64,000 bases of DNA from positions 11,222,001 through 11,286,000 of the forward strand of contig JAWMAR010000029.1 of assembly GCA_036785375.1 (NCBI GenBank), given 5' to 3'. Origin of the DNA: Leucoraja ocellata. Lineage: Eukaryota. Both the position numbers and the translations under genes were made by a program. Below are positions 6,101 through 63,999 of the stretch, in pieces. The stretch's first letter is position 1, and each line of letters starts with the position of its first letter. The notes under the pieces were generated by a model. That model saw only the letters and a list, made by a program, of their open reading frames with translations, had not been told where the DNA came from and did no database searches.

Positions 6101-9100
6101 TTCAATCTCTCCTCTTGCGGCAATAACGCAATTTCTGCAACCAGCCCAGTGATTCTGTGTTGCATTCACTCCATGGCATGAACAAATGTTGTTTCCTGAA
6201 TAAGATGATAACTGCAGATAACCTTGAGGAGTAGTCACTTTGGACCCTATTATCTGTATAGCAATTTTCAACTTAATTATTATGTAGGGGATTTTAAAGC
6301 ATACTTGATGAAGCTGTTAAGAGCTTTAATCTTGCTGTCAACAATGCCCGGTTTATCATGCGAGGGGATATACTCACCAGGAGGTTCGGTAACATCACCT
6401 AAAAGAAGAAACAAACAATCCAGTTAATTATCATTTGAAGTGTGTTCAGAAGTAATAAATGTGAGGCAATATCTGCCCCGTAACTGAAAGAGTCTGCATA
6501 CTACACAATGGTCTCATCAACCACTTCAGACCCCACAGAAGCAGAGAGGAGGCTTGCCACCCTCCATGTCAAAGAAGGAGGGGTGTTTAAGGTGGGGATG
6601 AATTTACTATTGGAAACTCTGGAAATCAGCAAACAGAGTGATAGGAAGAGGGTGGCTAGTCAAAATGTGAGTAGTTATTACAGTCTATGTTATAATCAGC
6701 TCCGCTCATTATTCAGTAATATTCACAAATTATATTTTACAATTGCCTCATACTCACAAAAGGAATCAGGGCAGGTGAATCGTATTCTGTAATCTTGACA
6801 TGCGCGATCAGGTTGGTTGCTGTTCTTGCAATAGAATCCAGTAGAAACGTTGCAACTGTTGAGTAGAATGTAGGGAGGTGTGATAAAGTAGTTGATAAAA
6901 CTACTGATGCTCTTTGAATGAAATAATAAAAGCGCAATATTATAGTCCGGCTATATTTTGTACCTGGCAATGTTCTCTCCAGTCTGTGAGGCCGGAATCC
7001 CTGACGTTGTCTCCACCTCACACGCGATTGGATCCGTGCAGATCTGACCGGGATTTTCAGTTCGCAGATTGGGGAATATTTCATAATCTCCAATTCCTGC
7101 TGGGTTATCACGGTCAAACCACGCAGTTTTGCAATTCCCCACTGAGGAGCAGAAAGAGAAAGTAGATTCAAAGTGAACATTGGGCCTGATGGATTGACAC
7201 AAAATGATGGGGCAAATTAGCTGGACAGGTCGCATCTCTAGAGGAAAGGAATAGGTGATGTTTCATGATGAGACCCTTCTTCAGACTGACAGTCAGGGGA
7301 GAGAAAAATTAGGGGTATGAAAAGGAACAGAACAAATCAGACCCTGACCTAATGGCATAAGAACCCACTTTGTTCATTGTTGGCTTTGGAGGGGGGGGGG
7401 GGATAACAAGTGGATACAAACAGTAAAACTAGCAGGATGGTTAGGGGAGGTGAGGGATGGAGAGAGAGGGAATGCAAGGGTTATTTCAATTAAAAATAAT
7501 GAATATTTATAATGCAGGGTGTAAGCTGAGCAAGCGAAATATGAGGTGCTGTTCCTCCAATTTGCTCTCATGACTCAAAACAGCTCTTGAACCGATACAC
7601 CATCTATTCCTTTTTTCCAGAGATGCTGTCTGACCTGCTGAGTAGCCCCAGCATTTTGTGTCTATCTTCAGAGTTAACCAGCATCTGCAAATTGTTTGTA
7701 CACATTTGGTCTTATAGACCTGATAATTTGCTAACCTTCTTAGGCACAACTTACATGAACAATATTTCTCTTCAGAACACATCACATACTCAAGTACATG
7801 AGGGTACACAAAAATGCTGGAGAAACTCAGCGGGTGCAGCAGCATCTATGGAGCGAAGGAAATAGGCGACGTTTCGGGCCGAAACCCTTCTTCAGACTGA
7901 TGGGGGGTGGGGGGTAGAAGGAAGGAAAAAGGGAGGAGGAGGAGCCCGAGGGCGGGGGGATGGGAGGAGACAGCTCGAGGGTTAAGGAAGGGGAGGAGAC
8001 AGCAAGGGTAAGCAAAACTGGGAGAATTCAACGTTCATGCCATCCGGACGCAAGCAACCCAGGCGGAATATGAGGTGCTGTTCCTCCAATTTCCGGTGTT
8101 GCTCACTCTGGCAATGGAGGAGACCCAGGACTTCTCCACTCCCCTGTCTTACTCCAATCTCTCCCCCCCTGAACGCACTGCCATTGAATCACTCCGCAAA
8201 AACCCAGATTGGGTTATCAAACCAGCCGACAAGGGAGGTACCGTGGTAGTCTGGCGCGTCGATCTCTACAAAGCTGAGGCCACGTGCCAACTCTCGGACA
8301 CCTCCTCCTACTTACCCTTGGACCATGACCCCACTGACGAGCACCAGGCCACCATATCTAGCACCATCACCAACTTCATCAATTCCCACGCCCTGCCCGA
8401 CCGAGCCTCCAACCTCATCATTCCCCAGCCGCGCACGGCCCGTATTTACCTTCTCCCCAAAATCCACAAACCCGGCTCTCCCGGCAGACCCATTGTCTCT
8501 GCTTGTTCGTGCCCCACCGAACTGATCTCCACATACCTTGACTCCATACTATCCCCCTTGGTCAAATCCCTTCCCACCTATGTTCTAGACACCTCAGACA
8601 CTCTCCGCCGCCTCCGCGCATTCCACTCTCTAGGCCCTCACCCCCTCGTCTTCACCATGGATGTCCAGTCACTCTACACCTCCATCCCCCACCAGGATGG
8701 CCTCAAAGCCCTCCGGTTCTTCCTCGACCAGAGGAGCAACCTATACCCAGCCACTGACACTCTCCTCCGCCTAGCGGAGTTGGTCCTCACCCTCAACAAC
8801 TTTACGTTTGACTCCTCCCATTTCCTCCAAACACAAGGCATAGCTATGGGCACACGCATGGGCCCCAGCTACGCCTGCCTCTTTGTCGGGTACGTTGAAC
8901 AATCCTTGTTCAATACATACCAGAGCCCCATCCCCGACCTCTACCTCCGTTACATTGACGACTGCTTTGGGGCCACCTCCTGCACCCACACACAACTGAC
9001 TGACTTCATCCACTTCACCACCAACTTCCATCCGGCACTCCAATACACCTGGACCATTTCGAAACACTTCCCTACCATTCCTTGACCTCACCATCTCCAT

Positions 9101-12100
9101 TGCAGGGGACAGACTTCTGACCGACATACACTACAAACCAACTGACTCACATGGCTATCTGGACTACACGTCTTCCCACCCTGCCCCCTGTAAAGACTCT
9201 ATCCCCTACTCCCAATTCCTCCGCCTATGCCGCATCTGCTCCCAGGATGAGACGTTCCACACCAGGGCATCGGAAATGTCCTCGTTCTTCAGGTAACGGG
9301 GATTCCCCTCTGCCACAATAGATGAGGTTCACACCAGGGTCGTATCCATACCCCGCAACACTGCTCTCTCTCCCCATCCCCGCACTCGCAATAAGGGCAG
9401 AGTCCCCCTAGTCCTCACCTTTCACCCCACCAGCCGGCAAATAAAACAAATAATCCTCCGCCATTTCCGCCACCTCAAACGTGACCCCACTACTCTCCAC
9501 ATCTTCCCATCTCCCCTTATGTCTGCCTTCCGCAAAGACCGCTCCCTCCGCAAGTCCTTTGTCAATTCTTCCCTTCCCTCCCGTACCACCCCCTCCCCGG
9601 GCACTTTCCGTTGCAACCGCAAGAAATGCCACACTTGTCCCTTCACCTCCCCCGTCGACTCCATTCAAGGATCCAAGCAGTCGTTCCAGGTGCGACAAAG
9701 GTTCACCTGTATCTCCTCCAACCTCATCTACTGCATCCGCTGCTCTAGATGTCAGCTGATTTACATCGGGGAGATTAAGCGGAGGTTGGGCGATCGTTTC
9801 GCCGAACACCTCCGCTCAGTCCGCAATAACCTACCTGAACTCCCGGTGGCTCAGCACTTCAACTCCCCCTCCCATTCCCAATCCGACCTCTCTGTCCTGG
9901 GTCTCCTCCATTGCTAGAGTGAGCAACACCGGAAATTGGAGGAACAGCACCTCATATTCCGCCTGGGTTGCTTGCGTCCAGATGGCATGAACGTTGAATT
10001 CTCCTAGTTTTGCTAGCCCTTGCTGTCTCCTCCCCTTCCTTAACCCTCGAGCTGTCTCCTCCCATCCCCCCCGCCCTCGGGCTCCTTTTTCCCTTTTTCC
10101 TTCCTTCTACCCCCCACCCCCCATCAGTCTGAAGAAGGGTTTCGGCCCGAAACGTCGCCTATTTCCTTTGCTCCATAGACGCTGCTGCACCCACTGAGTT
10201 TCTCCAGCATTTTTGTGTACCTTCGATCTTCCAGCATCTGCAGTTCCTTCTTGAACACTCAAGTACATGAGAACTGGTTCCAGCTCCCTCCACCTTGCTT
10301 TTTCCTTCTTGCCCCATATTTGCTGATGTTGGTGACTGATTCTTTCCTATTTTGTAATCCAATAACCGCTGTACTTTGTATTCCTAGTCTTTGCAATTTC
10401 TTCTCATGTGGCTAAGTCATAATTTCTGCTATCTTTCCCGTGAATCTGTTTTGCATTCCTCCCAGGACAGGGACACATTTTGTAATAAGCTGATAACTAC
10501 AAGCAACTCTCGAGGTTCATTCGCACTGAAGCGCCTTTAATCTGTTGTGGCAGTTTTTTTAACTTGGTTATTATGTAGCGGATATTAAAACATACTGGAT
10601 GAAGCTCGTAAGAGCTTTCATATTGCTGTTAACATTGCCCTCTTTATAATGGGAGTGATATACTCACCAGGAGGTTCGGTAACACCACCTAAAAGGGGAA
10701 ACAAACAATTCAGTTAATTATCATTTGAAACATGTTGAGATTTAATGATTATCAGCAGATATCTGCCCCATCTGTGCAAAAGTCTGCAGACCACACGTTA
10801 GCCTCATCAACCACAACAGAACTTGTAGAACCAGAGAAGAGACATGCCACCCTCCATCTAAAGGAACTGTCAAAGAAGGAGGGCTGTTTAAGGTGGGGTT
10901 TAATTTACTATTGGAAAGTCAGCAAACAGAGGGACAGGAAGAGGGTGCCTAAGCAAAAGGTGAGTAGTTATTACAGTCTGTGTAATAATCAGCTCCACTC
11001 ATAATTCAGTAGCTAATATTCACAAATGATATTTTACAATTGCCTCATACTCACAAAAGGAATCGGGGCAGGTGAATCGTATTCTGTAATCTTGACATGA
11101 GCCATCACGTTGGTTGCTGTTCATACAAAAGAATCCAGTAGAAACGTTGCAACTGTTGGGTAGAATGTAGGGAGATGTGATAAAGTTGTTGATAAAACTA
11201 ATGATGCTCTTTGAATGAAATAATAAAAGTGCAATATTATGGCCGGCTCTATTTAGTACCTGGCAATGTTCTCTCCAGTCTGTGAGGACGGTATCCCTGA
11301 CGTTGTCTCTACCTCACAGGCGATTGGTTCTGTGCAGATCTGACCGGGATTCTCATTTCGCAGATGGGGGAACGTTTCATAATCTCCAAATCCTGATGGG
11401 TTATCACGGTCAAACCACGGAGTTTTGCAATTCCCTACTGAAGAGCAGAAAGAGAAAGTAGATTGAAGGTGAACATTGGGTCTGACAGATTGACACAAAC
11501 GTATGGAGCAAATTAGATCCAGGTAGCACCTTTGTAGGTAAGGAATAGGGGACCTTTCATGTTGAGATCCGTCTTCAGACAGAAAGTCAGGGGAGTGAGA
11601 AATTCTGGGTATGGAAAGGTTCAGAACAATTCAGAACCTGCACTAATGGTCAAAGAGCCCACATGGTTCATTGTTGGCTTTGGAGGAGGTGATAACGAGG
11701 GGATACAAAAAGCAAAACTTGCAGGATGTATGGGGCAAGTGAGGGATGGAGAGAGAGAGAATGCAAGGGTTACTTGAATTTAAAATATTCAATATTCATA
11801 ATGCTGGGTTGTAAGCTAGGCAAGCAAAATATGAGGTTCTTTTCAATTTACATGTGGCCGAACTCTGACATTGGAGGTGACCCAGGACAGAACGAGTCTG
11901 TCTCCACTGTCAGAGTGCTTTTCTGTCCTGCACCACCTCTACTGTCAGAGTAAGGCCTTATGCAAATTGGAGTAACAGCACTTCATATTTTGTTTGGGTA
12001 GCTTACAACCCAATATTGGAACATTAATTTCTCTAATTTCATGTAATCTTTGCCTTCCAACTCTCTCCATCTCTTCTCCACCTTAGTTGTCCGATAAGGT

Positions 12101-15100
12101 TTATTATTGTGGGCTCTTTGGCCATCGGTGCCAGCTCTGCTTTGTTCTGTACGTTTTCATTCCGCTAGTTTCCCTCTCCCCTGACTCTCAGACTGAAAAC
12201 TGGTCTCCTCATTACAATCTATTCCTTTTCTCCAGAGATGCTGACTGACCCGCTTTATAATGGGATCGATATACTCACCAGGAGGTTCGGTAACACCACC
12301 TAAAAGGAGAAACAAACAATTCAGTTAATTATCGTTTGAAACATGTTCAGATTTAAAGATTGTTAGCAAATATCTGCCCCATCTGTGCAAGAGTCTGCAC
12401 ACCACACGTTGGCCTCATCAACCACATCAGAACTCATAGAACCAGAGAAGAGACATGCCACCCTCCATCGAAAGGGACTGTCAAAGAAGGAGGAGTGTTT
12501 AAGGTGGGGATGAAATTACTATTGGAAAGTCTGGAAATCAGCAAACAGAGGGACATGAAGAGGGTGGCTAAGCAAGAAGGTGAGTAGTTATTACAGTCTG
12601 TGTTATAATCAGCTTCACTCATAATTCAGTAGCTAATATTCACAAATTATATTTTACAATTGCCTCATACTCACAAAAGGAATCAGGGCAGGTGAATCGT
12701 ATTCTGTAATCTTGACATGCGCGATCAGGTTGGTTGCTGTTCACACAAAAGAATCCAGTAGAAACGTTGCAACTGTTGAGTAGAATGTAGGGACATATGA
12801 TAAAGTTGTTGATAAAACCTCTGATGCACTTTGAATGAAATAATAAAAGTGCTATAATATGGCTGGCTCTATTTTGTACCTGGCAATGTTCTCTCCAGTC
12901 TGTGAGGCCGGAATCCCTGATGTTGTCTCCACCTCACAGGCGATTGGATCCATGCAGATCTGACCGGGATTCTCAGTTCGCAGATTGGGGAAGATTTCAT
13001 AATCTCCATTTCCTGATGGGTTATCACGGTCAAACCACGCAGTTTTGCAATTCCCCACTGAAGAAGAGCAGAAAGAGAAAGTAGATTCAAAGTGAACATT
13101 GGGTCTAATGGATTGACACAACATGTTGCAGCAAATTAGCTCGGCAGGTCGCATCTCTAGAGGAAAGAAATAGGTGACGGTTCATGTCGAGACCCTTCCT
13201 CAAACTGAGAGACCGGTGAGAGAGAAATTAGAGGTTTGAAAATGTACAGAACAAATCAGAGCCTGCACTAATGGCCAAAGAGCCCACATGGTTCATTGTT
13301 GACTTTGGAGGAGGTAATAACGAGGGGATACAAACAGTAAAACTAGTAGGATGATTGCAGCAGGTGAGGGATGGAGAGAGAGGGAATGCAAGGGTTACTC
13401 CTTTGTTCAAGAGAGGGGCAAAGATGATCACAAAAATGACAGGCCTTTACGATGAATTAACACCACACATGAAGTTGGGTACTGTAGTTGCCTTCTAACA
13501 CATCAATCAGAATATCAGAAAAGAAAGTAAGAATTAGGAACAGGAGTCAGACATGTGGCCATTTGAACTAGCAATCTTCTATTTCAGGTCCATTTTCCAG
13601 CACTATCAACATATCCTTTAACGTCCAGAAAACTAACAATCACTTCTGAACGTCCTCGAATGCTCTCTGGAATCAAGAATGTCAAAAATACACCACCTTC
13701 TGAGTGACACAACTAATCGTATTTCAATCCCAAAATATCTTCCTCTCATGCTGAGACAGTGGTGCATGCACCTGGAGTCCAAAGGGACAGAGATGTCTTT
13801 CCATTCTACAATTCCTGGAGAAACATGTTCTAGTCTGAAGAATGGTCCCGACTCGAAATATCACCTATTCATGATCCCAGAGATGATGCCTGACATGATC
13901 AGTTACTCCAGCACTTTATTTCTTATTTTGTAATCCAGTATCTACTGTATTTTGTATTACTTATACTTGCAATTTCTTCTCATGTGGCTAAATCACAATT
14001 TCTGTTACCTATCCCGTCAATCTGTTTTGCATTCCCTCCATGGCATGGACACATTTTGTTTCCTTAACAAGATGATAACTACAAGCAACTCTTGAGGTTC
14101 AGTCGCATTGAAGCGCCTATAATCTGTTGTGGCAGTTTTTTAACTTGTTTATTATGTAGCGGACATTTAAACACACTGTATGAAGTTCATAAGAGCTTTC
14201 ATATTACTGTTAACATTGCCCTCTTTATCATGGGAGCGATATACTCACCAGGAGGTTCGGTAACACCACCTAAAAGGAGAAACAAAACAATTCAGTTAAT
14301 TATCATTTGAAACATGTTGAGATTTAATGATTATCAGCAGATATCTGCCCCATCTGTGCAAAAGTCTGCAGACCACACGTTAGCCTCATCAACCACAACA
14401 GAACTAGTAGAACCAGAGAAGAGACATGCCACCCTACATCTAAAGGAACTGTCAAAGAAGAAGGAGTGTTTAAGATGGGGATGAATTTACTATTGGAAAG
14501 TCAGCAAACAGAGGGACAGGAAGAGGGTGGCTAAGCAAAAGGTGAGTAGTTATTACAGTCTGTGTAATAATCAGCTCCATTCATAATTCAGTAGCAAATA
14601 TTCACAAATTATATTTTACAATCGCCTCATACTCACAAAAGGAATCGGGGCAGGTGAATCGTATTCTGTAATCTTGACATGAGCCATCACGTTGGTTGCT
14701 GTTCATACAAAAGAATCCAGTAGAAACGTTGCAACTGTTGAGTAGAATGTAGGGACATATGATAAAGTTGTTGATAAAACTACTGATGCTCTTTGAATGA
14801 AATAATAAAAGTGCAATATTATGGCCGGCTCTATTTAGTACCTGGCAATGTTCTCTCCAGTCTGTGAGGCCGGTATCCCTGACGTTGTCTGTACCTCACA
14901 GGCGATTGGTTCCGTGCAGATCTGACCGGGATTCTCATTTCGCAGATGGGGGAAGGTTTCATAATCTCCAAATCCTGATGGGTTATCACGGTCAAACCAC
15001 GGAGTTTTGCAATTCCCCACTGAAGAGCAGAAAGAGAAAGTAGATTGAACGTGAACATTGGGTCTGACAGATTGACACAAAATTATGGAGCAAATTAGCT

Positions 15101-18100
15101 CCAGGTAGCATCTCTAGTCGTCCAGTAGAAACATTGCTTCTAGTCTGAAGAAGGATCCTGACACGAAACATCACCTATTAATGATTCGCAGAGATGATGC
15201 CTGACACGATCAGTTACTCCAGCACTTTGTTCCTTATTTTGTAATCCAATATCCGCTGCACTTTGTATTCCTAGTCTTTGCAATTTCTTCTCAAGCGGCT
15301 AAATCACAATTTCTGCTGCCTTTCCCGTGAATCTGTTTTGCATTCCCTCCATGACATGGACACATTTTGTTTCCTTATAAGCTGATAACTACAAGCAAAT
15401 CTCGAGGCTCAGTCGCACTGAAGTGCATATAATCTGTTGTGGCAGTTTTATGACTTGGTTATTATGTAGCGGACATTAAAATATACTGGATAAAGCTTGT
15501 TAAAACTTTTATATTGCTGTTAACATTGCCTTCTTTATAATGGGAGCGATATACTCACCAGGAGGTTCGGTAACACCACCTAAAAGGAGAAACAAACAAA
15601 TCACCTAATTATCATTTGAAATATGTTCAGATTACATAGATACATAGAAAATAGGTGCAGGAGTAGGCCATTCGGCCCTTCGAGCCTGCACCGCCATTCA
15701 ATATGATCATGGCTGATCATCCAACTCAGTATCCCGTACCTGCCTTCTCTCCATACCCCCTGATCCCTTTAGCCACAAGGGCCACATCTAACTCCCTCTT
15801 AAATATAGCCAATGAACTGGCCTCAACTACCTTCTGTGGCAGAGAGTTCCAGAGATTCACCACTCTCTGTGTGAAAAATGTTTTTCTCATCTCGGTCTTA
15901 AAGGATTTCCCCCTTATCCTTAAGCTGTGACTCCTTGTCCTGGACTTCCCCAACATCGGGAACAATCTTCCTGCATCTAGCCTGTCCAACCCCTTAAGAA
16001 TTTTGTAAGTTTCTATAAGATCCCCCCTCAATTTCCTAAAGGAGGGGGGGGGGAGAGAGGAGGGGGGGGATGAGAAAGGAGGGGAGGGGGAGAGAGGAGG
16101 GGGGGAGAGGAGAGGGGGGTGATGGGAGAGGGGGGGGGGTGATGTGGAGAGGGGGGGGTGATGGGGAGAGGGGAGGGGTGATGGGGAGGGGGGAGAGAGA
16201 GGACGGGAGAGAGAGAGAAAGGGAGAGAGAGAAAGAGAGAGGGATAGGGAGAGAGAGGATGGGAGAGAGAGAGAGAGAGGGTGCCTTTTTACTTCAACCC
16301 AAACAACCGTTTGCAGGCAGTGCTTTTTTCCTCAAACTAACCATATTTTCATTTTCAAACCACATTATGGGTACTCACAGCTGTGGAGACATTTGTTCAG
16401 TGTCATTCAGAGCTCTGATTGAGGCACACCACTTGCAGAGACTGATTGAGGCACACTTTGCATCTCCCCTTTTCCTAATCGGCCACCATTTAGATAATAG
16501 TCTGCTTTCCTGTTTTTGACACCAAAGTGGATAACCTCACATTTATCCACATTATACTGCATTTGCCAAACATTTTCCCACTCACCCAGCCTATCCAAGT
16601 CACCTTGCAGTCTCCTAGCATCCTCCTCACAGCTAACACTGCCCCCCAGCTTAGTGTCATCCGCAAACTTGGAGATGTTGCCTTCAATTTCCTCATCCAG
16701 ATCATTAATATATATTGAAAATAGCTGGGGTCCAGCACTGAGCCTTGCAGTACCCCACTAGTCACTGCCTGCCATTGTGAAAAGGACCCGTTTACTCCTA
16801 CTTTTTGCTTCCTGTTTGCCAGCCAGTTCTCTATCCACATCAATACTGAACCCCCAATACCGTGTGCTTTAAGTTTGTATACTAATCTCTTATGTGGGAC
16901 CTTGTCGAAAGACTTAGATTAAATGATGGCAAGCAAAATAAGGGATGAAATTACTATCGGAAAGTCTGGAAATTAGCAAACAGAGGGACAGGAAGAGGGT
17001 GGCTAAGCAAAAAGGTGAGTAGTTATTACAGTCTGTGTAATACTCAGCTCCACTCATAATTCAGTAGCTAATATTCACAAATGATATTTTACAATCACAT
17101 CATACTCACAAAAGGAATCGGGGCAGGTGAATCGTATTCTGTAATCTTGACATGAGCCATCACGTTGGTTGCTGTTCATACAAAAGAATCCAGTAGAAAC
17201 GTTGCAACTGTTGAGTAGAATGTAGGGAGATGTGATAAAATAGTTGATAAAACTAATGATGCTCTTTGAATGAAATGATAAAAGTGCAATATTATGGCCG
17301 GCTCTATTTTGTACCTGGCAATGTTCTCTCCAGTCTGTGAGGCCGGAATCCCTGACGTTGTCTCTACCTCACAGGCGATTGGTTCCGTACAGATCTGATC
17401 GGGATTCTCAGTTCGCAGATGGGGGAACGTTTCATAATCTCCAAATCCTGATGGGTTATCACGGTCAAACCATGGAGTTGTGCAATTCCCTACTGAAGAG
17501 CAGAAAGAGAAAGTAGATTGAAGGTGAACATTGGGTCTGACAGATTGACACAAATGTTGCAGCAAATTAGCTCGGCAGGTCGCATCTCTAGAGGAAAGAA
17601 ATAGGTGACGGTTCATGTCGAGACCCTTCCTCGAACTGAGAGACAGGTGAGAGAGAAATTATAGGTTTGAAAATGTACAGAACAAATCAGAGCCTGCACT
17701 AATGGCCAAAGAGCCCACATGGTTCATTGTTGACTTTGGACGAGGTAATAACAAAATCCATGTCTAGTTTTCCTGGTCCTCCTCGTGACAATCCCACATT
17801 CTGCAATCCTGAATCATGCCTGGCAGAATACTCAAATTACTCTTACGTGGGTCACTTTCCTCAAGTGAACAAGTGATGTCAGAGGACCGGAGAAACGCAG
17901 AAGTTACTCCTTTGTTCAAGAGAGGGGAAAAGATGATCACAGACATTACAGGCCTTTACGATGAATTAACACCACACAAAGTTTTTATGAGTACTCTAGT
18001 TACCTTCTAACAAATAAATCAGAATATCAGAAAAGAAAGTAAGAATTAGGAGCAGGAGTCAGAGATATGACCATTTGAACTAGTAATCGTCCACTTCAGG

Positions 18101-21100
18101 TCCTTTTTCCAGCACTATCAACTTTAACAACCAGAAAACTAACAATCACTTCTGAATGTCTTCGAATGCGCTCTGCAATGAAGAATGACAAAAATACACC
18201 ACCTTCTGAGTGAAACAACTTATCGTATTTTAATCCCAAAATATCTTCCTCTCATGTTGAGACAGTACTGCATGTACCTGGAGTCCAAAGGGACAGAGAT
18301 GACTTTCCATTCTACAATCCCTAGAGAAAATGGTTCTAGTCTGAAGATGGGTCCCGAATCGAAACAGGACCTATTCATGATCCTGGAGATGATGCCTGAT
18401 ACGTTCTGTTATTCCAGCACTTTATTCCTTATTTTGTAATCCAATATCTGCTGTATTTTGTATTCCAAATCTTTGCAATTCTTTCCCATGTGGCTAAATC
18501 ACAATTTCTGCCACCTTCCCCATGAATCTGTTCCGCATTCCCTCCATGACATGGACACATTTTGTTTCCTTAATAAGCTGATAACTACAAGCAACTCTTG
18601 AGGTTCAGTCACACTGAAGTGCCTATAATCTGTTATGCCAGTGTTTTAACTCAGTTATTATGTAGCGGACATTAAAAAATACCGGATGAAGCTCGTAAGA
18701 GCTTTCATATTGCTGTTAACATTGCCCTCTTTATCATGGGAGCGATATACTCACCAGGAGGTTCGGTTAGACCACCTAAAAGGAGAAAGAAACAATTCAG
18801 TTAATCATCATTTGAAACATGTTCAAACTTAATGATTGTCAGCAGATATCTGCCCCTTCTGTGCAAGAGTCTGCACACCACACGTTAGCCTCATCAACCA
18901 CATCAGAACGCAAAGAACCAGAGAAGAGACATGCCACCCTCCATCCAAAGGGACTGCCAAAGAAGGGGGGGGGGTGTTTATGATGGGGATGAATTTACAA
19001 GTTGCCTTCTAACACATCAATCAGAATATCAGAAAAGAAAGAAAGAATTAGGAGTCAGACATGTGGCCATTTGAACTAGCAATCTTCTATTTCAGGTCCA
19101 TTTTCCAGCACTATCAACATATCCTTTAACGTCCAGAAAACTAACAATCACTTCTGAACGTCCTCGAATGCTCTCTGGATTCAAGAATGTCAAAAATACA
19201 CCACCTTCTGAGTGAAACAACTAATCATATTTCAATCCCAAAATATCTTCCTCTCACGCTGAGACAGTGGTGCATGCACCTGGAGTCCAAAGGGACAGAG
19301 ATGACTTTCCATTCTACAATCCCTGGAGAAACATGTTCTAGTCTGAAGAAGGGTCCCAACTCGAAATATCACCTATTCATGATCCCAGAGATGATGCCTG
19401 ACATGATCAGTTACTCCAGCACTTTATTTCTCATTTTGTAATCCAGTATCTACTGTACTTTGTATTACTAATACTTGCAATTTCTTCTCATGTGGCTAAA
19501 TCACAATTTCTGTTGCCTATATCGTCAATCTGTTTTGCATTCCCACCATGGCATGGACACAATTTGTTTCCTTAACAAGATGATAACTACAAGCAACTCT
19601 TGAGGTTCAGTCGCATTGAAGCGCCTATAATCTGTTGTGGCAGTTTTTTAACTTGTTTATTATGTAGCGGACATTTAAACACCCTGGATGAAGTTCATAA
19701 GAGCTTTCATATTGCTGTTAACATTGCCCTCTTTATCATGGGGGCGATATACTCACCAGGAGGTTCGGTAACACCACCTAAAAGGAGAAACAAAACAATT
19801 CAGTTAATTATCATTTGAAAGATGTTGAGATTTAATGATTATCAGCAGATATCTGCCCCATCTGTGCAAAAGTCTGCAGACCACACGTTAGGCTCATCAA
19901 CCACAACAGAACTTGTAGAACCAGAGAAGAGACATGCCACCCTCCATCTAAAGGAACTGTCAAAGAAGGGGTGGTGTTTAAGATGGGGATGAATTTACTA
20001 TTGGAAAGTCTGGAAATCTGCAAACAGAGGGACAGGAAGAGGGTGGCTAAGCAAAAGGTGAGTAGTTATTACAGTCAGTGTAATACTCAGCTCCACTCAT
20101 AATTCAGTAGCTAATAATCACAAATGATATTTCTCAATCGTCTAATACTCACAAAAGAATTCAGGGCAGGTGAATCGTATTCTGTAATCTTGACATGAGC
20201 CATCACGTTGGTTGCTGTTCACACAAAAGAATCCAGTAGAAACGTTGCAACTGTTGAGTAGAATGTAGGGACATATGATAAAGTTGTTGATAAAACTACT
20301 GATGCTCTTTGAATGAAATAAGAAAAGTTCAATATTATGGCCGGCTATATTTTGTACCTGGCAATGTTCTCTCCAGTCTGTGAGGCCGGAATCCCTGACG
20401 TTGTCTCCACCTCACAGGCGATTGGATCCGTGCAGATCTGACCGGGATTCTCAGTTCGCAGATTGGGGAAGATTTCATAATCTCCATTTCCTGATGGGTT
20501 ATCACGGTCAAACCACACAGTTTTGCAATTCCCTACTGAAGAGCAGAAAGAGAAAGTAGATTGAAAGTAAACATTGGGTCTGACAGATTGACACAATATT
20601 ATGGAGCAAATTAGCTCCAGGTAGCATCTCTAGAGGTAAGGAATATGTTACCTTTCATGTCGAGACAGAGAGACCTGATCGATTTGCTAACCGTTGGGCA
20701 CAACTTACATGAACAATATTTCTCCTCAGAACGCATCATATACTCAAGTACATGAGACCTAGTTCCAGCTCCCTCCACCTTGTTCACTGTTCTGCCCATC
20801 ACTTCACTTATTTCTTCTTGCCCCATATTTGCTGATGTTGGTGACTGTTTCCTCTCACTGCTGCCATTGGTCCTGACTCCTTCACATCAATCGCCATCCC
20901 TCTCTCCTCAATAAAATCCCAACTTTATAAATTACCAGCCTGGTACCATGTCCCAGAATTCCTACGAAATCCATGTCTAGTTTTCCTGGTCCTCCTCGTG
21001 ACAATCCCACATTCTGCAATCCTGAATCATGCCTGGCAGAATACTCAAATTACTCTTACGTGAGTCACTTTCCTCAAGTGAACAAGTGATGTCAGAGGAC

Positions 21101-51100: not shown

Positions 51101-54100
51101 TGCTGTTCATACAAAAGAATCCAGTAGAAACGTTGCAACTGTTGAGTAGAATGTAGGGAGATGTGATAAAGAAGTTGATAAAACTAATGATGCTCTTTGA
51201 ATGAAATAATAAAAGTGCAATATTATGGCCGGCTCTATTTAGTACCTGGCAATGTTCTCTCCAGTCTGTGAGGCCGGAATCCCTGACGTTGTCTCTACCT
51301 CACAGGCGATTGGTTCCGTGCAGATCTGACCGGGATTCTCATTTCGCAGATGGGGGAACGTTTCATAATCTCCAAATCCTGATGGGTTATCACGGTCAAA
51401 CCATGGAGTTGTGCAATTCCCTACTGAAGAGCAGAAAGAGAAAGTAGATTGAAGGTGAACATTGGGTCTGACAGATTGACACAAATGTTGCAGCAAATTA
51501 GCTCCAGGTAGCATCTCTAGAGGTAAGGAATAGGGGACCTTTCATGTTGAGATCCGTCTTCAGACAGAGAGTCAGGGGACTGAGAAATGTTATAGTATGG
51601 AAAGGTTCAGAACAATTCAGAACCTGCACTAATGGTCAAAGAGCCCACATGGTTCATTGTTGGCTTTGGAGGAGGTGATAAGGAAGGGATACAAAAAGCA
51701 AAACTTGGAGGATGTATGGGGCAAGTGAGGGATGGAGAGAGAGAGAATGCAAGGGTTACTTGAATTTAAAATAATCAATATTCATAATGCTGGGTTGTAA
51801 GCTAGGCAAGCAAAATATGAGGTTCTTTTCAATTTACATGTGGCCGAACTCTGACATTGGAGGTGACCCAGGACAGAACGAGTCTGTCTCCACTGTCAGA
51901 GTGCTTTTCTGTCCTGCACCACCTCTACTGTCAGAGTAAGGCCTTATGCAAATTGGAGTAACAGCACTTCATATTTTGTTTGGGTAGCTTACAACCCAAT
52001 ATTTGCACATTAATTTCTCTAATTTCATGTAATCTTTGCCTTCCAACTCTCTCCATCTCTTCTCCACCTTAGTCGTCCGATAAGGTTTATTATTGTGAGC
52101 TCTTTGGCCATCAGTGCCAGCTCTGCTTTGTTCTGTACGTTTTCATACCGCTAGATTCCCTCTCCCCTGACTCTCAGACTGAAGACTGGTCTCCTCATTA
52201 CAATCTATTCCTTTTCTCCAGAGATGCTGACTGACCCGCTGAGTAGCTCTAGCATTTTGAGACTATCATCGGAGTAATCAAGCATCTGCTGGTGCTTTGT
52301 ACACATTTGGTCTTATAGACCTGATAGATTTGCTAAACTTGTCAGGCACAACTTACATGAACAATATTTCTCATCAGAACGCATCACATACTCAAGTACA
52401 TGAGACCTGGTTCCAGCTCCCTCCACCTTGTTCACTGTTCTGCCCATCACTTCACTTTTGTCTTCTTGCCCCATATTTGCTGATGTTGGTGACTGTTTCC
52501 TCTCACTGCTGCCATTGGTCCTCACTCCTTCACATCAATCGCCATCCCTCTCTCCTCAATAAAATCCCAACTTTATAAATTACCAGCCTGTTACCATGTC
52601 CCAGAATTCCTACAAAATCCATGTCTAATTTTCCTGGTCCTCCTCGTGACAATCCCACATTCTGCAATCCTGAATCATGCCTGGCAGAATACTCAAATTA
52701 CTCTTACGTGAGTCACTTTCCTCAAGTGAACAAGTGATGTCAGAGGACCGGAGAAACGCAGAAGTTACTCCTTTGTTCAAGAGAGGGGAAAAGATGATCA
52801 CAGAAATGACAGGCCTTTACGATGAATTAACACCACACATGAAGTTTTTATGAGTACTCTAGTTACCTTCTAACAAATAAATCAGAATATCAGAAAAGAA
52901 AGTAAGAATTAGGAGCAGGAGTCAGAGATATGACCATTTGAACTAGTAATCGTCCACTTCAGGTCCTTTTTCCAGCACTATCAACTTTAACAACCAGAAA
53001 ACTAACAATCACTTCTGAATGTCTTCGAATGCGCTGTGCAATGAAGAATGACAAAAATACACCACCTTCTGAGTGAAACAACTTATCGTATTTTAATCCC
53101 AAAATATCTTCCTCTCATGTTGAGACAGTACTGCATGTACCTGGAGTCCAAAGGGACAGAGATGACTTTCCATTCTACAATCCCTAGAAAAAATGGTTCT
53201 AGTCTGAAGATGGACCCCGAATCGAAACAGGACATATTCATGATCCCGGAGATGATGCCTGATACGTTCTGTTATTCCAGCACTTTATTTCTTATTTTGT
53301 AATCCAATATCTGCTGTAGTTTGTATTCCAAATCTTTGCAATTCTTTCCCATGTGGCTAAATCACAATTTCTGCCACCTTTCCCATGAATCTGTTTCGCA
53401 TTCCCTCCATGACATGGACACATTTTGTTTCCTTAATAAGCTGATAACTACAAGCAACTCTTGAGGTTCAGTCACACTGAAGCGCCTATAATCTGTTATG
53501 CCAGTGTTTTAACTCAGTTATTATGTAGCGGACATTAAAAAATACTGGATGAAGCTCGTAAGAGCTTTCATATTGCTGTTAACATTGCCCTCTTTATCAT
53601 GGGAGCGATATACTCACCAGGAGGTTCGGTTACACCACCTAAAAGGAGAAAGAAACAATTCAGTTAATTATCATTTGAAACATGTTCAGACATAATGATT
53701 GTCAGCAGATATCTGCCCCATCTATGCTAGAGTCTGCACACCACACGTTAGCCTCATCAACCACATCAGAACTCAAAGAACCAGAGAAGAAACATACCAC
53801 ACTCCATCCAAAGGGACTGTCAAAGAAAGAGGAGTGTTTAAGATGGGGATGAATTTACTATTGGAAAGTCTGGAAATCAGCAAACAGGGGGACAGGAAGA
53901 GGGTGGCTAAGCAAAGTGTGAGTTGTTATTACAGTCTGTGTTATAATCAGCTCCACTCATAATTCAGTAGCTAATATTCACAAATATGTTTTTACAATTG
54001 CCTCATACTTACAAAAGGAATCAGGGCAGGTGAATCGTATTCTGTAATCTTGACATGCGCGATCACGTTGGTTGCTGTTCACACAAAAGAATCCAGTAGA

Positions 54101-57100
54101 AACGTTGCAACTGTTGAGTAGAATGTAGGGACATATGATAAAGTTGTTGATAAAACCTCTGATGCACTTTAAATGAAATAATAAAAGTGCTATAATATGG
54201 CTGGCTCTATTTTGTACCTGGCAATGTTCTCTCCAGTCTGTGAGGCCGGAATCCCTGATGTTGTCTCCACCTCACAGGCGGTCGGATCCATGCAGATCTG
54301 ACCGGGATTCTCAGTTCGCAGATTGGGGAAGATTTCATAATCTCCATTTCCTGATGGGTTATCACGGTCAAACCACGCAGTTTTGCATTTCCCCACTGAA
54401 GAAGAGCAGAAAGAGAAAGTAGATTCAAAGTGAACATTGGGTCTGATGGATTGACACAACTTGTTGCAGCAAATTAGCTCGGCAGGTCGCATCTCTAGAG
54501 GAAAGAAATAGGTGACGGTTCATGTCGAGACCCTTCCTCAAACTGAGAGACCGGTGAGAGAGAAATTAGAGGTTTGAAAATGTACAGAACAAATCAGAGC
54601 CTGCACTAATGGCCAAAGAGCCCACATGGTTCATTGGTGACTTTTTCAGGAGGTAATAACGAGGGGATACAAACAGTAAAACTAGTAGGATGATTGCAGC
54701 AGGTGAGGGATGGAGAGAGAGGGAATGCAAGGGTTACTCCTTTGTTCAAGAGAGGGGCAAAGATAATCACAAAAATGACAGGCCTTTACGATGAATTAAC
54801 ACCACACATGAAATGGGTACTGTGGTTGCCTTCTAACACATAAATCAGAATATCAGAAAAGAAAGTAAGAATTAGGAGCAGGAGTCAGACATGTGGCCAT
54901 TTGAACTAGCAATCTTCTATTTCAGGTCCATTTTCCAGCACTATCGACATATCCTTTAACGTCCAGAAAACTAACAATCACTTCTGAATGTCCTCGAATG
55001 CTCTCTGGAATCAAGAATATCAAAAATACACCACCTTCTGAGTGAAACAACTAATCGTATTTCAATCCCAAAATATCTTCCTCTCATGTTGAGACAGTGG
55101 TGCATGCACCTGGAGTCCAAAGGGACAGAGATGACTTTCCATTCTACAATCCCTGGAGAAACATATTCTAGTCTGAAGAAGGGTCCCAACTCGAAATATC
55201 ACCTATTCATGATCACAGAGATGATGCCCGACATGATCAGTTACTCCAACACTTTATTTCTCATTTTGTAATCCAGTATCTACTGTATTTTGTATTACTA
55301 ATACTTGCAATTTCTTCTCATGTGGCTAAATCACAATTTCTGTTACCTATCCCGTCAATCTGTTTTGCATTCCCTCCATGGCATGGACACATTTTGTTTC
55401 CTTAACAAGATGATAACTACAAGCAACTCTTGAGGCTCAGTCGCATTGAAGAGCCTATAATCTGTTGTGGCAGTTTTTTAACTTGTTTATTATGTAGCGG
55501 ACATTTAAACACCCTGGATGAAGTTCATAAGAGCTTTCATATTACTGTTAACATTGCCCTCTTTATCATGGGAGCGATATACTCACCAGGAGGTTCGGTA
55601 ACACCACCTAAAAGGAGAAACAAAACAATTCAGTTAATTATCATTTGAAACGTGTTGAGATTTAATGATTATCAGCAGATATCTGCCCCATCTGTGCAAA
55701 AGTCTGCAGACCACACGTTGGCCTCATCAACCACAACAGAACTAGTGGAACCAGAGAAGAGACATGCCACCCTCCATCTAAATGAACTGTCAAAGAAGGA
55801 GGAGTGTTTAAGATGGGGATGAATTTACTATTGGAAAGTCAGCAAACAGAGGGACAGGAAGAGGGTGGCTAAGCAAAAGGAGAGTAGTTATTACAGTCTG
55901 TGTAATAATCAGCTCCATTCATAATTCAGTAGCTAAGAAATAGGTGACGGTTGATGTTGAGACCCTTCCTCAAACTGAGAGACCGGTGAGAGAGAAATTA
56001 GAGGTTTGAAAATGTACAGAACAAATCAGAGCCTGCACTAATGGTCAAAGAGCCCACATGGTTCATTGTTGACTTTGGAGGAGGTAATAACGAGGGGATA
56101 CAAACAGTAAAACTAGTAGGATGATTGCAGCAGGTGAGGGATGGAGAGAGAGGGAATTCAAGGGTTACTCCTTTGTTCAAGAGAGGGGCAAAGATGATCA
56201 CAAAAATGACAGGCCTTTACGATGAATTAACACCACACATGAAATGGGTAGTGTAGTTGCCTTCTAACACATAAATCTGAATATTAGATAAGAAAGTAAG
56301 AATTAGGAGCAGGAGTCAGACATATGGGCATTTGAACTAGCAATCTTCTATTTCAGGTTCATTTTCCAGCACAATCTACATATCCTTTAACGTCCAGAAA
56401 ACTACCAATCACTTCTGAATGTCCTCGAATGCTCTCTGGAATGAAGAATGACAAAAATACACCACCTTCTGAATGAAACAACTTATCGTATTTTAATCCC
56501 AAAATATCTTCCTCACATGCTGAGACAGTGGTGCATGTACCTGGAGTCCAAAGGGACAGAGATGACTTTCCATTCTACAATCATTAGAGAAAAAGTCTGA
56601 AGATGGGTCCCGACTCGAAACATCACCTATTCATGATCCCAGAGATGATGCCTGACATGATCAGTTACTCCAGCACTTTATTTCTTATTTTGAAATCCAG
56701 TATCTGCTGTACTTTGTATTCCTAGTGCTTGCAATTTCTTGCAGGTAATCTGTTGTGGCAGTTTTTTAACTTGTTTATTATGTAGTGGACATTAAAACAT
56801 ACTGGATGAAACTCATATGAGCTTTCATATTACTGTAAACATTGCCCGCTTTATAATGGGATCGATATACTCACCAGGAGGTCCGGTTACACCACCTAAA
56901 AGGAGAAACAAACAATTCAGTTAATTATCGTTTGAAACATGTTCAGATTTAGATTGTCAGCAGATATCTGCCCCATCTATGCTAGAGTCTGCACACCACA
57001 CGTTAGCCTCATCAACCACATCAGAACTCAAAGAACCAGAGAAGAAACATGCCACACTCCATCCGAAGGGACTGTCAAAGAAAGAGGAGTGTTTAAGATG

Positions 57101-60100
57101 GGGATCAATTTACTATTGGAAAGTCTGGAAATCAGCAAACAGGGGGACAGGAAGAGGGTGGCTAAGCAAAGTGTGAGTTGTTATTATAGTCTGTGTTATA
57201 ATCAGCTCCACTCATAATTCAGTAGCTAATATTCACAAATATGTTTTTACAATTGCCTCATACTTACAAAAGGAATCAGGGCAGGTGAATCGTATTCTGT
57301 AATCTTGACATGAGCGATCACGTTGGTTGGTGTTCACACAAAAGAATCCAGTAGAAACGTTGCAACTGTTGAGTAGAATGTAGGGGCATATGATAAAGTT
57401 GTTGATAAAACCTCTGATGCACTTTAAATGAAATAATAAAAGTGCTATAATATGGCTGGCTCTATTTTGTACCTGGCAATGTTCTCTCCAGTCTGTGAGG
57501 CCGGAATCCCTGACGTTGTCTCCACCTCACAGGCGATTGGATCCGTGCAGATCTGACCGGGATTCTCAGTTCGCAGATTGGGGAAGATTTCATAATCTCC
57601 ATTTCCTGATGGGTTATCACGGTCAAACCACGCAGTTTTGCAATTCCCCACTGAAGAAGAGCAGAAAGAGAAAGTAGATTCAAAGTGAACATTGGGTCTG
57701 ATGGATTGACTCAACATGTTGCAGCAAATTAGCTCGGCAGGTCGCATCTCTAGAGGGAAGAAATAGGTGACGGTTCATGTCGAGACCCTTCCTCAAACTG
57801 AGAGACCGGTGAGAGAGAAATTAGAGGTTTGAAAATGTACAGAACAAATCAGAGCCTGCACTAATGGCCAAAGAGCCCACATGGTTCATTGTTGACTTTG
57901 GAGGAGGTAATAACGAGGGGATACAAACAGTAAAACTAGTAGGATGATTGCAGCAGGTGAGGGATGGAAAGAGAGGGAATGCAAGAGTTATTCCTTTGTT
58001 GAAGAGAGGGGCAAAGATGATCACAAAAATGACAGGCCTTTACGATGAATTAACACCACACATGAAGTTGGGTACTGTAGTTGCCTTCTAACACATAAAT
58101 CTGAATATCAGAAAAGAAAGTAAGAATTAGGAACAGGAGTCAGACATATGGCCATTTGAACTAGCAATCTTCTATTTCAGGTCCATTTTCCAGCACAATC
58201 TACATATCCTTTAACGTCCAGAAAACTACCAATCACTTCTGAAAGTCCTCGAATGCTCGCTGGAGTGAAGAATGACAAAAATACACCACCTTCTGAATGA
58301 AACAACTTATCGTATTTCAATTCCAAAATATCTTCCTCTTATGTTGAGACAGTGGTGCATGCACCTGCAGTCCAAAGGGACAGAGATGACTTTCCATTCT
58401 ACAATCATTAGAGAAAAAGTTTCTAGTCTGAAGATGGGTCCCGACTCAAAACACCACCTATTCATGATCGCAGAGATGATGCCTGACATGATCAGTTACT
58501 CCAGCACTTCATTTCTTATTTTGAAATCCAGTACCTGCTGTACTTTGTATTACTAATCCTTGCCATTTCTTCTCATGTGGCTAAATCACAATTTCTGTTA
58601 TCTATCCCGTGAATCTGTTTTACATTCCCTCCATGGCATGGACACATTTTATTTCTCTAACAAAATGATAACTACAAGCAACTCTCGACGTTCAGTCGCA
58701 CTGAAGCACAGATAACCAGTTATGCCAGTGTTTTAACTTAGTTATTATGTACCGGACATTAAAACATACTGTATGAAACTCATAAGAGCTTTCATATTAC
58801 TGTTAACATTGCCCTCTTTATAATGGGATCGATATACTCACCGGGAGGTTCGGTAGCACCACCTAAAAGGAGAAACAAACAATTCAGTTAATTATCATTT
58901 GAAACATGTTCAGATTTAAAGATTGTCAGCAAATATCTGCCCCATCTGTGCAAGAGTCTGCACACCACAAGTTGGCCTCATCAACCACAACAGAACTCAT
59001 AGAACCAGAGAAGAGACATGCCACCCTCCATCCAAAGGGACTGTCAAAGAAGGAGGGCTGTTTAAGATGGGGATGAATTTACTATTGGAAGTCATCATAT
59101 TGGAACTAAAAATGTACAGAACAAATCAGAGCCTGCACTAATGGCCAAAGAGCCCACATGGTTCATTGTTGACTTTGGAGGAGGTAATAACGAGGGGATA
59201 CAAACAGTAAAACTAGTAGGATGATTGCAGCAGGTGAGGGATGGAGAGAGAGGGAATGCAAGGGTTACTCCTTTGTTCAAGAGAGGGGCAAAGATGATCA
59301 CAAAAATGACAGGCCTTTACGATGAATTAACACCACACATGAAGTTGGGTACTGTAGTTGCCTTCTAACACATCAATCAGAATATCAGAAAAGAAAGAAA
59401 GAATTAGGAGCAGGAGTCAGACATGTGGCCATTTGAACTAGCAATCTTCTATTTCAGGTCCATATTCCAGCACTATCAACATATCTTTTAACGTCCAGAA
59501 AACTAACAATCACTTCTGAATGTCCTCGAATGCTCTCTGGAATCAAGAATGTCAAAAATACACCACCTTCTGAGTGAAACAACTAATCGTATTTCAATCC
59601 CAAAATATCTTCCTCTCATGCTGAGACAGTGGTGCATGCACCTGAAGTCAAAGGGACAGAGATGTCTTTCCATTCTACAATCCCTGGAGAAACATGTTCT
59701 AGTCTGAAGAAAGGTCCCGACTCGAAATATCACCTATTCATGATCCCAGAGATGATGCCTGACATGATCAGTTACTCCAGCACTTTATTTCTTATTTTGT
59801 AATCCAGTATCAAATCACAATTTCTGTTACCTATCCCGTCAATCTGTTTTGCATTCCCTCCATGGCATGAACACATTTTGTTTCCTTAAGAAGATGATAA
59901 CTACAAGCAACTCTTGAAGTTCAGTCGCATAGAAGCGCCTATAATCTGTTGTGGCAGTTTTTTAACTTGTTTATTATGTAGTGGACATTTAAACGCACCG
60001 GATGAAGTTCATAAGAGCTTTCATATTACTGTTAACATTGCCCTCTTTATAATGGGATCGATATACTCACCAGGAGGTTCGGTAACACCACCTAAAAGGA

Positions 60101-63100
60101 GAAACAAACAATTCAGTTAATTATCGTTTGAAACATCTTCAGATTTAAAGATTGTCAGCAAATATCTGCCCCATCTGTGCAAGAGTCTTCACACCACACG
60201 TTGGCCTCATCAACCACATCAGAACTCATAGAACCAGAGAAGAGACATGCCACCCTCCATCCAAAGGGACTGTCAAAGAAGGAGGGCTGTTTAAGGTGGG
60301 GATGAAATTACTATTGGAAAGTCTGGAAATCAGCAAACTGAGGGACATGAAGAGGGCGGCTAAGCAAAAGGTGAGTAGTTATTACAGTCTGTGTAATACA
60401 CAGCTTCACTCATAATTCAGGAGCTAATATTCACAAATGATATTTTACAATCGCCTAATACTCACAAAAGAAATCAGGGCAGGTGAATCGTATTCTGTAA
60501 TCTTGACATGAGCCATCACGTTGGTTGATGTTCACACAAAAGAATCCAGTAGAAACGTTGCAACTGTTGAGTAGAATGTAGGGAGGTGTGATAAAGTAGT
60601 TGATAAAACTACTGATGCTCTTTGAACGAAATAATAAAAGTGCTATAATATGGCCGGCTCTATATTGTACCTGGCAATGTTCTCTCCAGTCTGTGAGGCC
60701 GGAATCCCTGACGTTGTCTCCACCTCACAGGCGATTGGATCCGTGCAGATCTGACCGGGATTCTCAGTTCGCAGATCGGTGATCGTTTCATAATCTCCAT
60801 TTCCTGATGGGTTATCACGGTCAAACCACGCAGTTTTGCAATTCCCCACTGAAGAGCAGAAAGAGAAAGTAGATTGAAAGTGAACATTGGGTCTGATGGA
60901 TTGACACAAAATTATGGAGCAAATTAATTCCAGGTAGCATCTCTAGAGGTAAGGAATATGTTACCTTTCATGTCGAGACAGAGAGACCTGATCGATTTGC
61001 TAACTGTTGGGCACAACTTACATGAACAATATTTCTCATCAGAACGCATCATATACTCAAGTACATGAGACCGAGTTCCAGCTCCCTCCACCTTGTTCAC
61101 TGTTCTGCCCATCACTTCACTTATTTCTTCTTGCCCCATATTTGCTGATGTTGGTGACTGTTTCCTCTCACTGCTGCCATTGGTCCTGACTCCTTCACAT
61201 CAATCGCCATCCCTCTCTCCTCAATAAAATCCCAACTTTATAAATTACCAGCCTGGTACCATGTCCCAGAATTCCTACGAAATCCATGTCTAGTTTTCCT
61301 GGTCCTCCTCGTGACAATCCCACATTCTGCAATCCTGAATCATGCCTGGCAGAATACTCAAATTACTCTTACGTCAGTCACTTTCCTCAAGTGAACAAGT
61401 GATGTCAGAGGACCGGAGAAACGCAGAAGTTACTCCTTTGTTCAAGAGAGGAGAAAAGATGATCACAGAAATGACAGGCCTTTACGATGAATTAACACCA
61501 CACAAAGTTTTTATGAGTACTCTAGTTACCTTCTAACAAATAAAACAGAATATCAGAAAAGAAAGTAAGAATTAGGAGCAGGAGTCAGAGACGACTTCCC
61601 ATTCTACAATCCCTAGAGAAAAAGGTTCTAGTCTGAAGATGGGTCCCGAATCGAAACAGGACCTATTCATGATCTCGGAGATGATGCCTGATACGTTCTG
61701 TTATTCCAGCATTTTGTAATCCATATCTGCTGTAGTTTGTATTCCTAGTCTTTGCAATTTCTTCTCATGTGGCAAAATCACAATTTCTGCCACCTTTCCC
61801 ATGAATCTGTTTTGCATTCACTCCATGACATGGACACATTTTGTTTCCTTAATAAGCTGATAACTACAAGCAACTCTTGAGGTTCAGTCGCACTGAAGCG
61901 CCTATAATCTGTTTTAACTTAGTTATTATGTAGCGGACTTTAAAACATACTGTATGAAACTAATAAGAGCTTTCATATTACTGTTAACATTGCCCGCTTT
62001 ATAATGGGATCGATATACTCACCAGGAGGTTCGGTAACACCACCTAAAAGGAGAAACAAACAATTCAGTTAATTATCATTTGAAACATGTTCAGATTTAA
62101 TGATTGTCAGCAGATATCTGCCCCATCTATGCTAAAGTCTGCACACCACACGTTAGCCTCATCAACCTCATCAGAACCAGAGAAGAAACATGCCACACTC
62201 CATCCAAAGGGACTGTCAAAGAAAAAGGAGTGTTTAAGATGGGGATGAATTTACTATTGGAAAGTCTGGAAATCAGCAAACAGGGGGACAGGAAGAGGGT
62301 GGCTAAGCAAAGTGTGAGTTGTTATTACAGTCTGTGTTATAATCAGCTCCACTCATAATTCAGTAGCTAATATTCACAAATATGTTTTTACAATTGCCTC
62401 ATACTTACAAAAGGAATCAGGGCAGGTGAATCGTATTCTGTAATCTTGACATGCGCGATCACGTTGGTTGCTGTTCACACAAAAGAATCCAGTAGAAACA
62501 TTGCAACTGTTGAGTAGAATATAGGGACATATGATAAAGTTGTTGATAAAACCTCTGATGCACTTTAAATGAAATAATAAAAGTGCTATAATATGGCTGG
62601 TTCTATTTTGTACCTGGCAATGTTCTCTCCAGTCTGTGAGGCCGGAATCCCTGACGTTGTCTCCACCTCACAGGCGATTGGATCCGTGCAGATCTGACCG
62701 GGATTCTCAGTTCGCAGATTGGGGAAGATTTCATAATCTCCATTTCCTGATGGGTTATCACGGTCAAACCACGCAGTTTTGCAATTCCCTACTGAAGAGC
62801 AGAAAGAGAAAGTAGATTGAATGTAAACATTGGGTCTGACAGATTGACACAAAATTATGGAGCAAATTAGCTCCAGGTAGCATCTCTCGAGGTAAGGAAT
62901 ATGTTACCTTTCATGTCAAGACAGAGAGACCTGATCGATTTGCTAACCGTTGGGCACAACTTACATGAACAATATTTCTCCTCAGAACGCATCATATACT
63001 CAAGTACATGAGACCGAGTTCCAGCTCCCACCACCTTGTTCACTGTTCTGCCCATCACTTCACTTATTTCTTCTTGCCCCATATTTGCTGATGTTGGTGA

Positions 63101-63999: not shown

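Follow-up and report, generated by a model that had tools for sequence, protein, structure and literature searches.

Between the tandem exons of a large gene of the skate Leucoraja ocellata lies a 21-nt segment, here termed M, which the initial annotation had taken for a hidden microexon that completes the last cysteine of each encoded domain, is under selection and could, through regulated skipping, expose a free thiol for intermolecular disulfides. This raises the question of whether M is a genuine exon, whether it serves as a switch or as a fixed part of the protein, and from which source it was derived. The window, a stretch of 64,000 nt (contig JAWMAR010000029.1:11222001-11286000), covers the middle of the gene, which resides on the minus strand, and for a view of the whole gene 200 kb of flanks were added to it.

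Results

Architecture of the gene

The gene begins with the ATG exon, followed by one exon of 34 nt, the 21-nt leader exon and 47 intact pairs of an exon A (178 nt) and an exon B (98 nt) in tandem, with a stop codon immediately 3' of the last Cys-Pro. Counting one microexon per interval, the encoded protein comprises about 4,600 residues. In the 5' block, exon A encodes the N-terminal two thirds of a CysD domain with three cysteines. In the 3' block exon A is 3 bases shorter and starts with GC or GT in 9/9 cases, and exon B completes the same cysteine directly from A, in a tight F-C-N-C junction formed without a microexon. The direct F-C-x-C junction of the 3' block is also found in shark and skate models. 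The features are collected in Table 1.

Table 1. Features of the array; positions refer to the window unless the contig is named
Feature	Position	Strand	Remarks
Exons A, 5' (linker) type, n=22	4850..62791	-	178 nt, start TG or TA
Examples of 5'-type exon A	12880-13057, 11260-11437, 6964-7141, 4850-5027	-	
Exons B, n=23	2704..62506	-	98 nt, 4 Cys + first base of terminal Cys codon
Examples of exon B	12675-12772, 6758-6855, 4336-4433, 2704-2801	-	
First two exons A, 3' (ancestral) type	15..3261: 3087-3261, 15-189	-	175 nt, start GC/GT
M copies (low coordinate)	6378, 10668, 12279, 14249, 15559, 18755, 19757, 21709, 23669, 26387	-	21 nt each
M copies, continued	26993, 28150, 32375, 34344, 36289, 38245, 40195, 42139, 43434, 45404	-	21 nt each
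M copies, continued	47376, 49646, 50653, 53618, 55587, 56875, 58842, 60071, 62023, 63979	-	21 nt each
M copy with RNA contig support	12279..12299	-	joined to the end of exon B and to exon A (at 11437)
Leader microexon, likely parent of M	contig 11337399-11337419 (outside window)	-	21 nt
Retroelement with reverse-transcriptase stretch	7800..10260 (bounds approximate, read from sequence)	+	insertion in the M-to-A intron, interval 36; does not belong to the gene

Several further observations concern the array itself. Variants of exon A (such as the IFPN, TITD/TIAD and TFPH types) are mixed along it (window 15-63999) rather than arranged in blocks, as expected under unequal crossover or gene conversion, and the number of copies may be subject to polymorphism or to assembly effects. 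A tandem CAG|TAG acceptor precedes 12/38 of the A exons in the 5' block (e.g. window 11437/11434 and 5027/5024) and could drop one codon; in the observed contig the first AG was used. The second interval, of 11.9 kb, contains a decayed half copy of exon B whose donor is mutated and, next to it on the 3' side, an intact microexon (contig 11326913-11326954). Antisense retroelements with RVT_1 frames occupy array introns at window 29477-31882 (+) and 8012-9082 (+), and outside the window, on its upstream side, there are more long frames near contig 11297175-11299349 and 11329725-11333878.

In the Leucoraja RefSeq annotation, this single gene is split into at least five models (P0004, P0010, P0130, P0134, P0135), whose names range from 'mucin-5B-like' to 'CILP2-like', and the present gene structure corrects this. 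Read-through of the exon B donor also yields T|GT, a cysteine, and in most units then meets a stop codon within the next 2-11 codons, which accounts for truncated RefSeq models such as P0014.

Identity and predicted fold of the domains

Both exons match Pfam family PF13330 (Mucin2_WxxW), exon A with 40.0 bits and exon B with 32.3 bits at a cut-off of 22.4. An AlphaFold2 model of the two-domain Leucoraja ortholog P0010, calculated with 81 sequences, reached pLDDT values >90 in the domains and of about 70-80 in the linker at a pTM of 0.52, and its top 8 structure matches were the CysD domains of MUC5B, MUC2 and MUC5AC (PDB 6tm6, 8oer and 8ov0; Foldseek E 1.7e-05 to 6.5e-03, profile E 1.6e-11). 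The predicted structure thus has the CysD beta-sandwich fold. A single-sequence AlphaFold2 model with a pLDDT of 44.7 was discarded. The ten cysteines and full WxxW motif of mammalian CysD are not found in the skate domains, which have 8 Cys and C-K-T-A-W instead. Upstream of the domains, the ATG and two short hydrophobic exons form a putative signal peptide, called by eye and by its match to P0014, and between ATG and stop codon there is no room for a VWD domain, a long PTS region or a cystine knot, so that the predicted product consists of a signal peptide and tandem CysD domains only.

The orthologs, which are named si:dkey-205h13.2 or mucin-5AC, likewise carry essentially PF13330 alone. 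Nine 3' exon-A peptides are 98.6% identical to Amblyraja XP_032903886 (488/495), and the identity is 99% to Leucoraja and Amblyraja proteins and 72.9% to a Scyliorhinus protein named si:dkey-205h13.2. Judged by sequence, the gene qualifies as the ortholog of the fish poly-CysD 'Mucin-5AC', zebrafish si:dkey-205h13.2. According to the accessible part of PMC11765562, members of this family are secreted and consist of 2-27 CysD domains in a chain; zebrafish si:dkey-205h13.2 is reported to be expressed in neuromast support cells, and its loss to shorten the lateral-line cupula. Orthology to the zebrafish gene makes it likely that the skate protein is secreted and contributes to the gel of lateral-line cupulae. 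Poly-CysD relatives were also retrieved from lizards, geckos, a caecilian and axolotl (P0045, P0047, P0048, P0049, P0061, P0078, P0105), which extends beyond the fishes in the table of PMC11765562, as far as that source is accessible.

Copies, junctions and splice sites of M

A fuzzy search retrieved 30 copies of the 21-nt segment at 6378-63999 on the minus strand, each between ag and gt(g/a)ag, and zero copies on the plus strand of the window at the equal mismatch limit. M is a phase 1-1 exon. As the initial annotation had it, the final T of exon B and the initial GT of M join to T|GT, the codon of the terminal cysteine, followed by GVTEPP, and skipping of M would create T|TG or T|TA, a leucine, with the frame kept and 7 Cys left per domain. 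All 21 complete B-to-A intervals above position 5027 contain at least one copy (15 single, 4 double, 2 triple), and both intronic deletions described near M were recovered: at the 12279 copy the intron follows the reference intron for about 30 nt past the donor and then diverges, and at the 28150 copy about 45 nt are lost, starting about 11 nt past the donor. For the whole gene, M is found in 37/37 intervals of the 5' block (24 single, 9 double, 4 triple), with 54 copies that all start with GT after TAG and contain zero indels and zero stops; two M-like chance matches devoid of GT ends had been dropped from an initial 56. In the 3' block a splice-site scan, a search allowing 7 mismatches and blastn located M in 0/9 intervals. 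Exact matches to the M pattern number 36 in the genome, every one of them inside this locus.

At its donor, M agrees with the consensus in 8.0 of 9 positions, compared to 6.0 for the donors of exons A and B, and its acceptor side has a pyrimidine tract of 0.88 and a long AG-free zone. Regulated microexons range from 3 to 27 nt, and the SRRM4 motif is a UGC just upstream of the acceptor. M keeps the frame and falls into this size range, and the motif is largely absent: tgc occurs in the last 14 intron bases of 4/54 copies, all of which lie at the gene's 5' end. In 13/37 intervals there are 2-3 intact copies of M with intact sites that are jointly in frame and stop-free, and these extra copies derive from a few recurring breakpoints that delete A+B and spare M.

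Conservation of M

The copies in the array are recent duplicates and not independent counts, so that the following figures are descriptive: across 33 aligned units, pi is 0.044 for the M body, 0.079 for the upstream intron, 0.039 for exon A and 0.033 for exon B. The M body by itself is unexceptional, with 11% of 313 upstream 21-nt windows equally conserved, but M together with its splice sites (59 nt) has a pi of 0.025, lower than all 275 upstream windows. Compared to the flanking intron, the yardstick set by the initial annotation, the body is moderately more conserved, and the body with its splice sites clearly more so. Together with the uniform GT starts, the lack of indels and stops in the 54 copies, and the retention of the linker in skates, sawfish, electric ray and stingrays, this sequence record supports the proposed selection on M.

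Pairing of the terminal cysteine

Among 503 regex-parsed domains from 129 related proteins, Cys1 and the terminal Cys are both present in 442 and both missing in 39, with only one of the two in 22. Cys1 is kept in 107/126 first domains, which have no preceding domain, and the terminal Cys in 64/98 last domains, which have none following; in the last domain of the present gene both are missing. Counts over adjacent domains are concordant in 299/315 cases and by themselves do not discriminate between pairings. It is likely from this co-occurrence, seen in related sequences parsed by regular expression, that the terminal Cys pairs with Cys1 of its own domain, in which case skipping of M would break a structural bond. 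A disulfide map of MUC2 CysD2 from mass spectrometry (PMC3195396) is contradicted by a crystal structure (PMC7599080), as far as these sources are accessible, and neither was used for the assignment.

Domains 1 and 2 (near contig 11336830 and 11335145, upstream of the window) have a Cys-Cys before the first Trp and contain 9 Cys each. Amblyraja P0014 shares this feature, and several sharks have a Cys in the leader stretch instead. If inter-chain thiols exist, these extra cysteines, being constitutive, are better candidates for them.

Likely origin from the leader microexon

The leader exon is also 21 nt long and of phase 1-1. The region of M aligns to that of the leader in register, at 65-67% identity (E 1e-21 to 9e-18) along some 200 nt. 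This stretch comprises about 55 nt before and 120 nt after the leader exon and the same positions around M. Local scores of 160-174 for leader and M compare to 63 +/- 13, with a maximum of 102, in 1000 random windows. In addition, the last 350 nt of the M-to-A intron match the leader-to-A1 intron (E 4e-32), which brings the range of identities to 64-67%, and in the three 3'-block introns tested no homology to the leader introns was detected. Note that the skate leader exon starts with AT, not GT, and is identical to M at 10/21 bases. The intron homology makes it likely that M arose in rays as a tandem duplicate of the gene's own leader microexon.

Such an event would have been a tandem duplication of leader, A1 and B1 that started about 55 nt upstream of the leader exon and ended about 300 nt downstream of B1, and it would have placed a phase 1-1 exon between a B and an A exon. 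A GT start would keep the split cysteine codon intact in the new exon. The A exons of the 5' block would be one codon longer because they descended from A1, and such an exon A would no longer be able to supply the terminal cysteine, rendering M obligatory. The linker unit would then have expanded in skates, where extra copies of M would be remnants of units that lost A+B, each adding GGVTEPP to the spacer. With such a Pro/Thr spacer, the junction would be looser than the tight C-x-C of sharks, and the spacer is likely a site of O-glycosylation.

Distribution in sharks and rays

In protein models, the linker is present in Leucoraja, Amblyraja, Rhinoraja, Pristis, Narcine, Mobula and Hypanus, and absent from those of eight shark genera, where the junction is tight throughout, with one residue between the two cysteines in 67/69 and three in 2/69 cases. 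In six of the eight shark genera, a stretch of seven codons occupies the leader position. Provided that the models are correct, this distribution dates the origin of the linker to early rays. Of the 18 linkers in Amblyraja XP_032903886, 4 are double, and doubles and one triple were found in the Amblyraja and Pristis models. Teleost models also have short variable linkers, with a C7-to-W distance of 11-16 in most.

In stingrays the linker takes a different form. It consists of one or three 8-residue blocks in Mobula, and in Hypanus it is a PTS tract of 8-residue blocks that run in register from the terminal cysteine. Of 43 Hypanus blocks, which are copies of each other and not independent counts, the 28 PTS-rich ones all start with Ser or Gly (28/28), as the split codon N|GY requires. 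Interruptions of the tract start with S-E-Y-I, the sequence that a read-through of the M donor gives in skate models as well. These features fit an interpretation of the stingray blocks as tandem 24-nt copies of M. We lean slightly towards the broader view that in rays a copy of the leader became an obligatory linker, and that further copies built the exon-per-repeat PTS tracts of stingrays, giving a spacer of settable length.

Inclusion of M in transcripts

Inclusion was evident from run X1, a set of assembled contigs whose RNA status was guessed by index and from which rare variants drop out. Two of its contigs read from the end of B (8 nt) through M (21 nt) into A, the plus strand showing CT..AC at the intron ends, and a third spans the A-to-B joint and continues beyond B into the letters of the start of M. 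The raw-read runs X22, X23 and X24, with 3-5% of each read, were nearly all repeat-derived, and X23 held 2 reads on the A-to-B joint. Far from being hidden, as initially thought, M is already included in public RefSeq models of skates, sawfish and electric ray, and among the parsed junctions of 13 batoid protein models, which are predictions and could share one bias, 41 linker junctions have the cysteine and 0 are without it. M is a real, spliced-in exon that completes the terminal cysteine.

Regulated skipping, in which some cells would omit M and thereby leave 7 Cys and a free thiol that cross-links gel chains (Cys1, if it indeed pairs with the terminal Cys), draws on the size of M and on a frame that is retained in 37/37 intervals. 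The frame is kept, however, because M originated as a phase 1-1 exon, and the strong donor and acceptor side described above speak against omission. The joints of run X1 that were listed (15 of 25; 8 of 294 pieces) include no B-to-A skip joint, so that of the comparison of inclusion and skipping called for at the outset, the inclusion joints materialized and a skipped counterpart did not appear in this set. Unpaired thiols usually lead to ER retention, which also counts against skipping. Moreover, in MUC2 CysD all disulfides are intramolecular and dimers are non-covalent, according to the accessible part of PMC3195396. We consider the exposure of a thiol by skipping highly improbable; M is likely constitutive, and likely a fixed spacer rather than an on/off switch.

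The number of copies used might vary instead, with at least one M always included and spacer length, not cysteine number, as the spliced variable. The 13 intervals with multiple intact copies and the doubles and the triple of the Amblyraja and Pristis models are in line with this, and variation of this kind has been suggested for the exon-per-repeat PTS of chicken Muc13 (PMC1552070, accessible part), but no M-to-M joint is present among the listed joints of run X1, and extra copies that stem from recurring breakpoints may be neutral passengers. This possibility, which we regard as rather unlikely, is compatible with a linker recycled from the leader and differs only in whether the choice of copies varies. 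We attach very little weight to another origin of M, either by intron gain in a longer exon A or as an ancestral linker that both the 3' block and sharks have lost. Teleost models with their short variable linkers would agree with it, but intron gain does not lead one to expect homology to the leader introns on both sides of M, and the tight junction is common to eight shark genera. With good confidence we thus favor M as a spliced-in, obligatory linker exon of a 47-domain CysD gene that was recycled from the leader exon.

Discussion

The gene family was already in print and M in annotation; new are the homology of the introns of M to the leader introns, the tandem duplication proposed for rays, the absence of M from the eight shark models and the apparent growth of the stingray linker into 8-residue PTS repeats. 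A description of M or its origin was not found in the literature covered by our search, which lay outside supplements and most subscription papers. The locus offers a case in which the birth of an exon appears traceable, with a leader recycled as a linker and locked in place by a split cysteine codon, and with the old and the new junction both preserved in a single gene. Should the stingray tracts indeed be copies of M, rays provide a graded series, from none to one, several and dozens, for the origin of CysD-PTS mucins, and a compact poly-CysD chain would have turned into a CysD-PTS mucin, a PTS domain caught at birth. If so, the same series bears on the tuning of a sensory gel by spacer length, a question that has been raised for mucins in general (10.1101/2020.03.08.982447, accessible part).

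Comparison with known systems

SRRM4-type microexons are tissue-regulated. M resembles them in its length of 21 nt and in keeping the frame, but it has strong sites and no sign of skipping among the listed joints and parsed models, and its role is that of a structural linker repeated along a secreted protein. With the CysD domains of MUC2, MUC5AC and MUC5B, the skate domains share PF13330 and the predicted fold, but they have 8 rather than 10 Cys and only the second Trp of WxxW. Unlike gel-forming mucins, the skate gene is without VWD, cystine knot and long PTS, and each domain is distributed over two or three exons.

A close counterpart is the fish Mucin-5AC of PMC11765562, which like the skate gene has a signal peptide and then only tandem CysD. 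The skate example with 27 CysD in that paper is XP_032903886, and it has the same linkers as the present gene; the accessible part of the text does not discuss linkers or the exon structure in rays. The 47 domains found here contrast with 27 in XP_032903886, a model that starts inside a domain so that 27 is not a full count, and the 8 Cys per domain with 6 in most teleost domains seen. A precedent for Pro/Thr/Ser repeats made from small exons is chicken Muc13, with one exon per repeat in its PTS domain (PMC1552070, accessible part). Chicken Muc13 is a transmembrane protein, however, whereas M of the skate gene in addition completes a cysteine codon and appears traceable to a leader exon.
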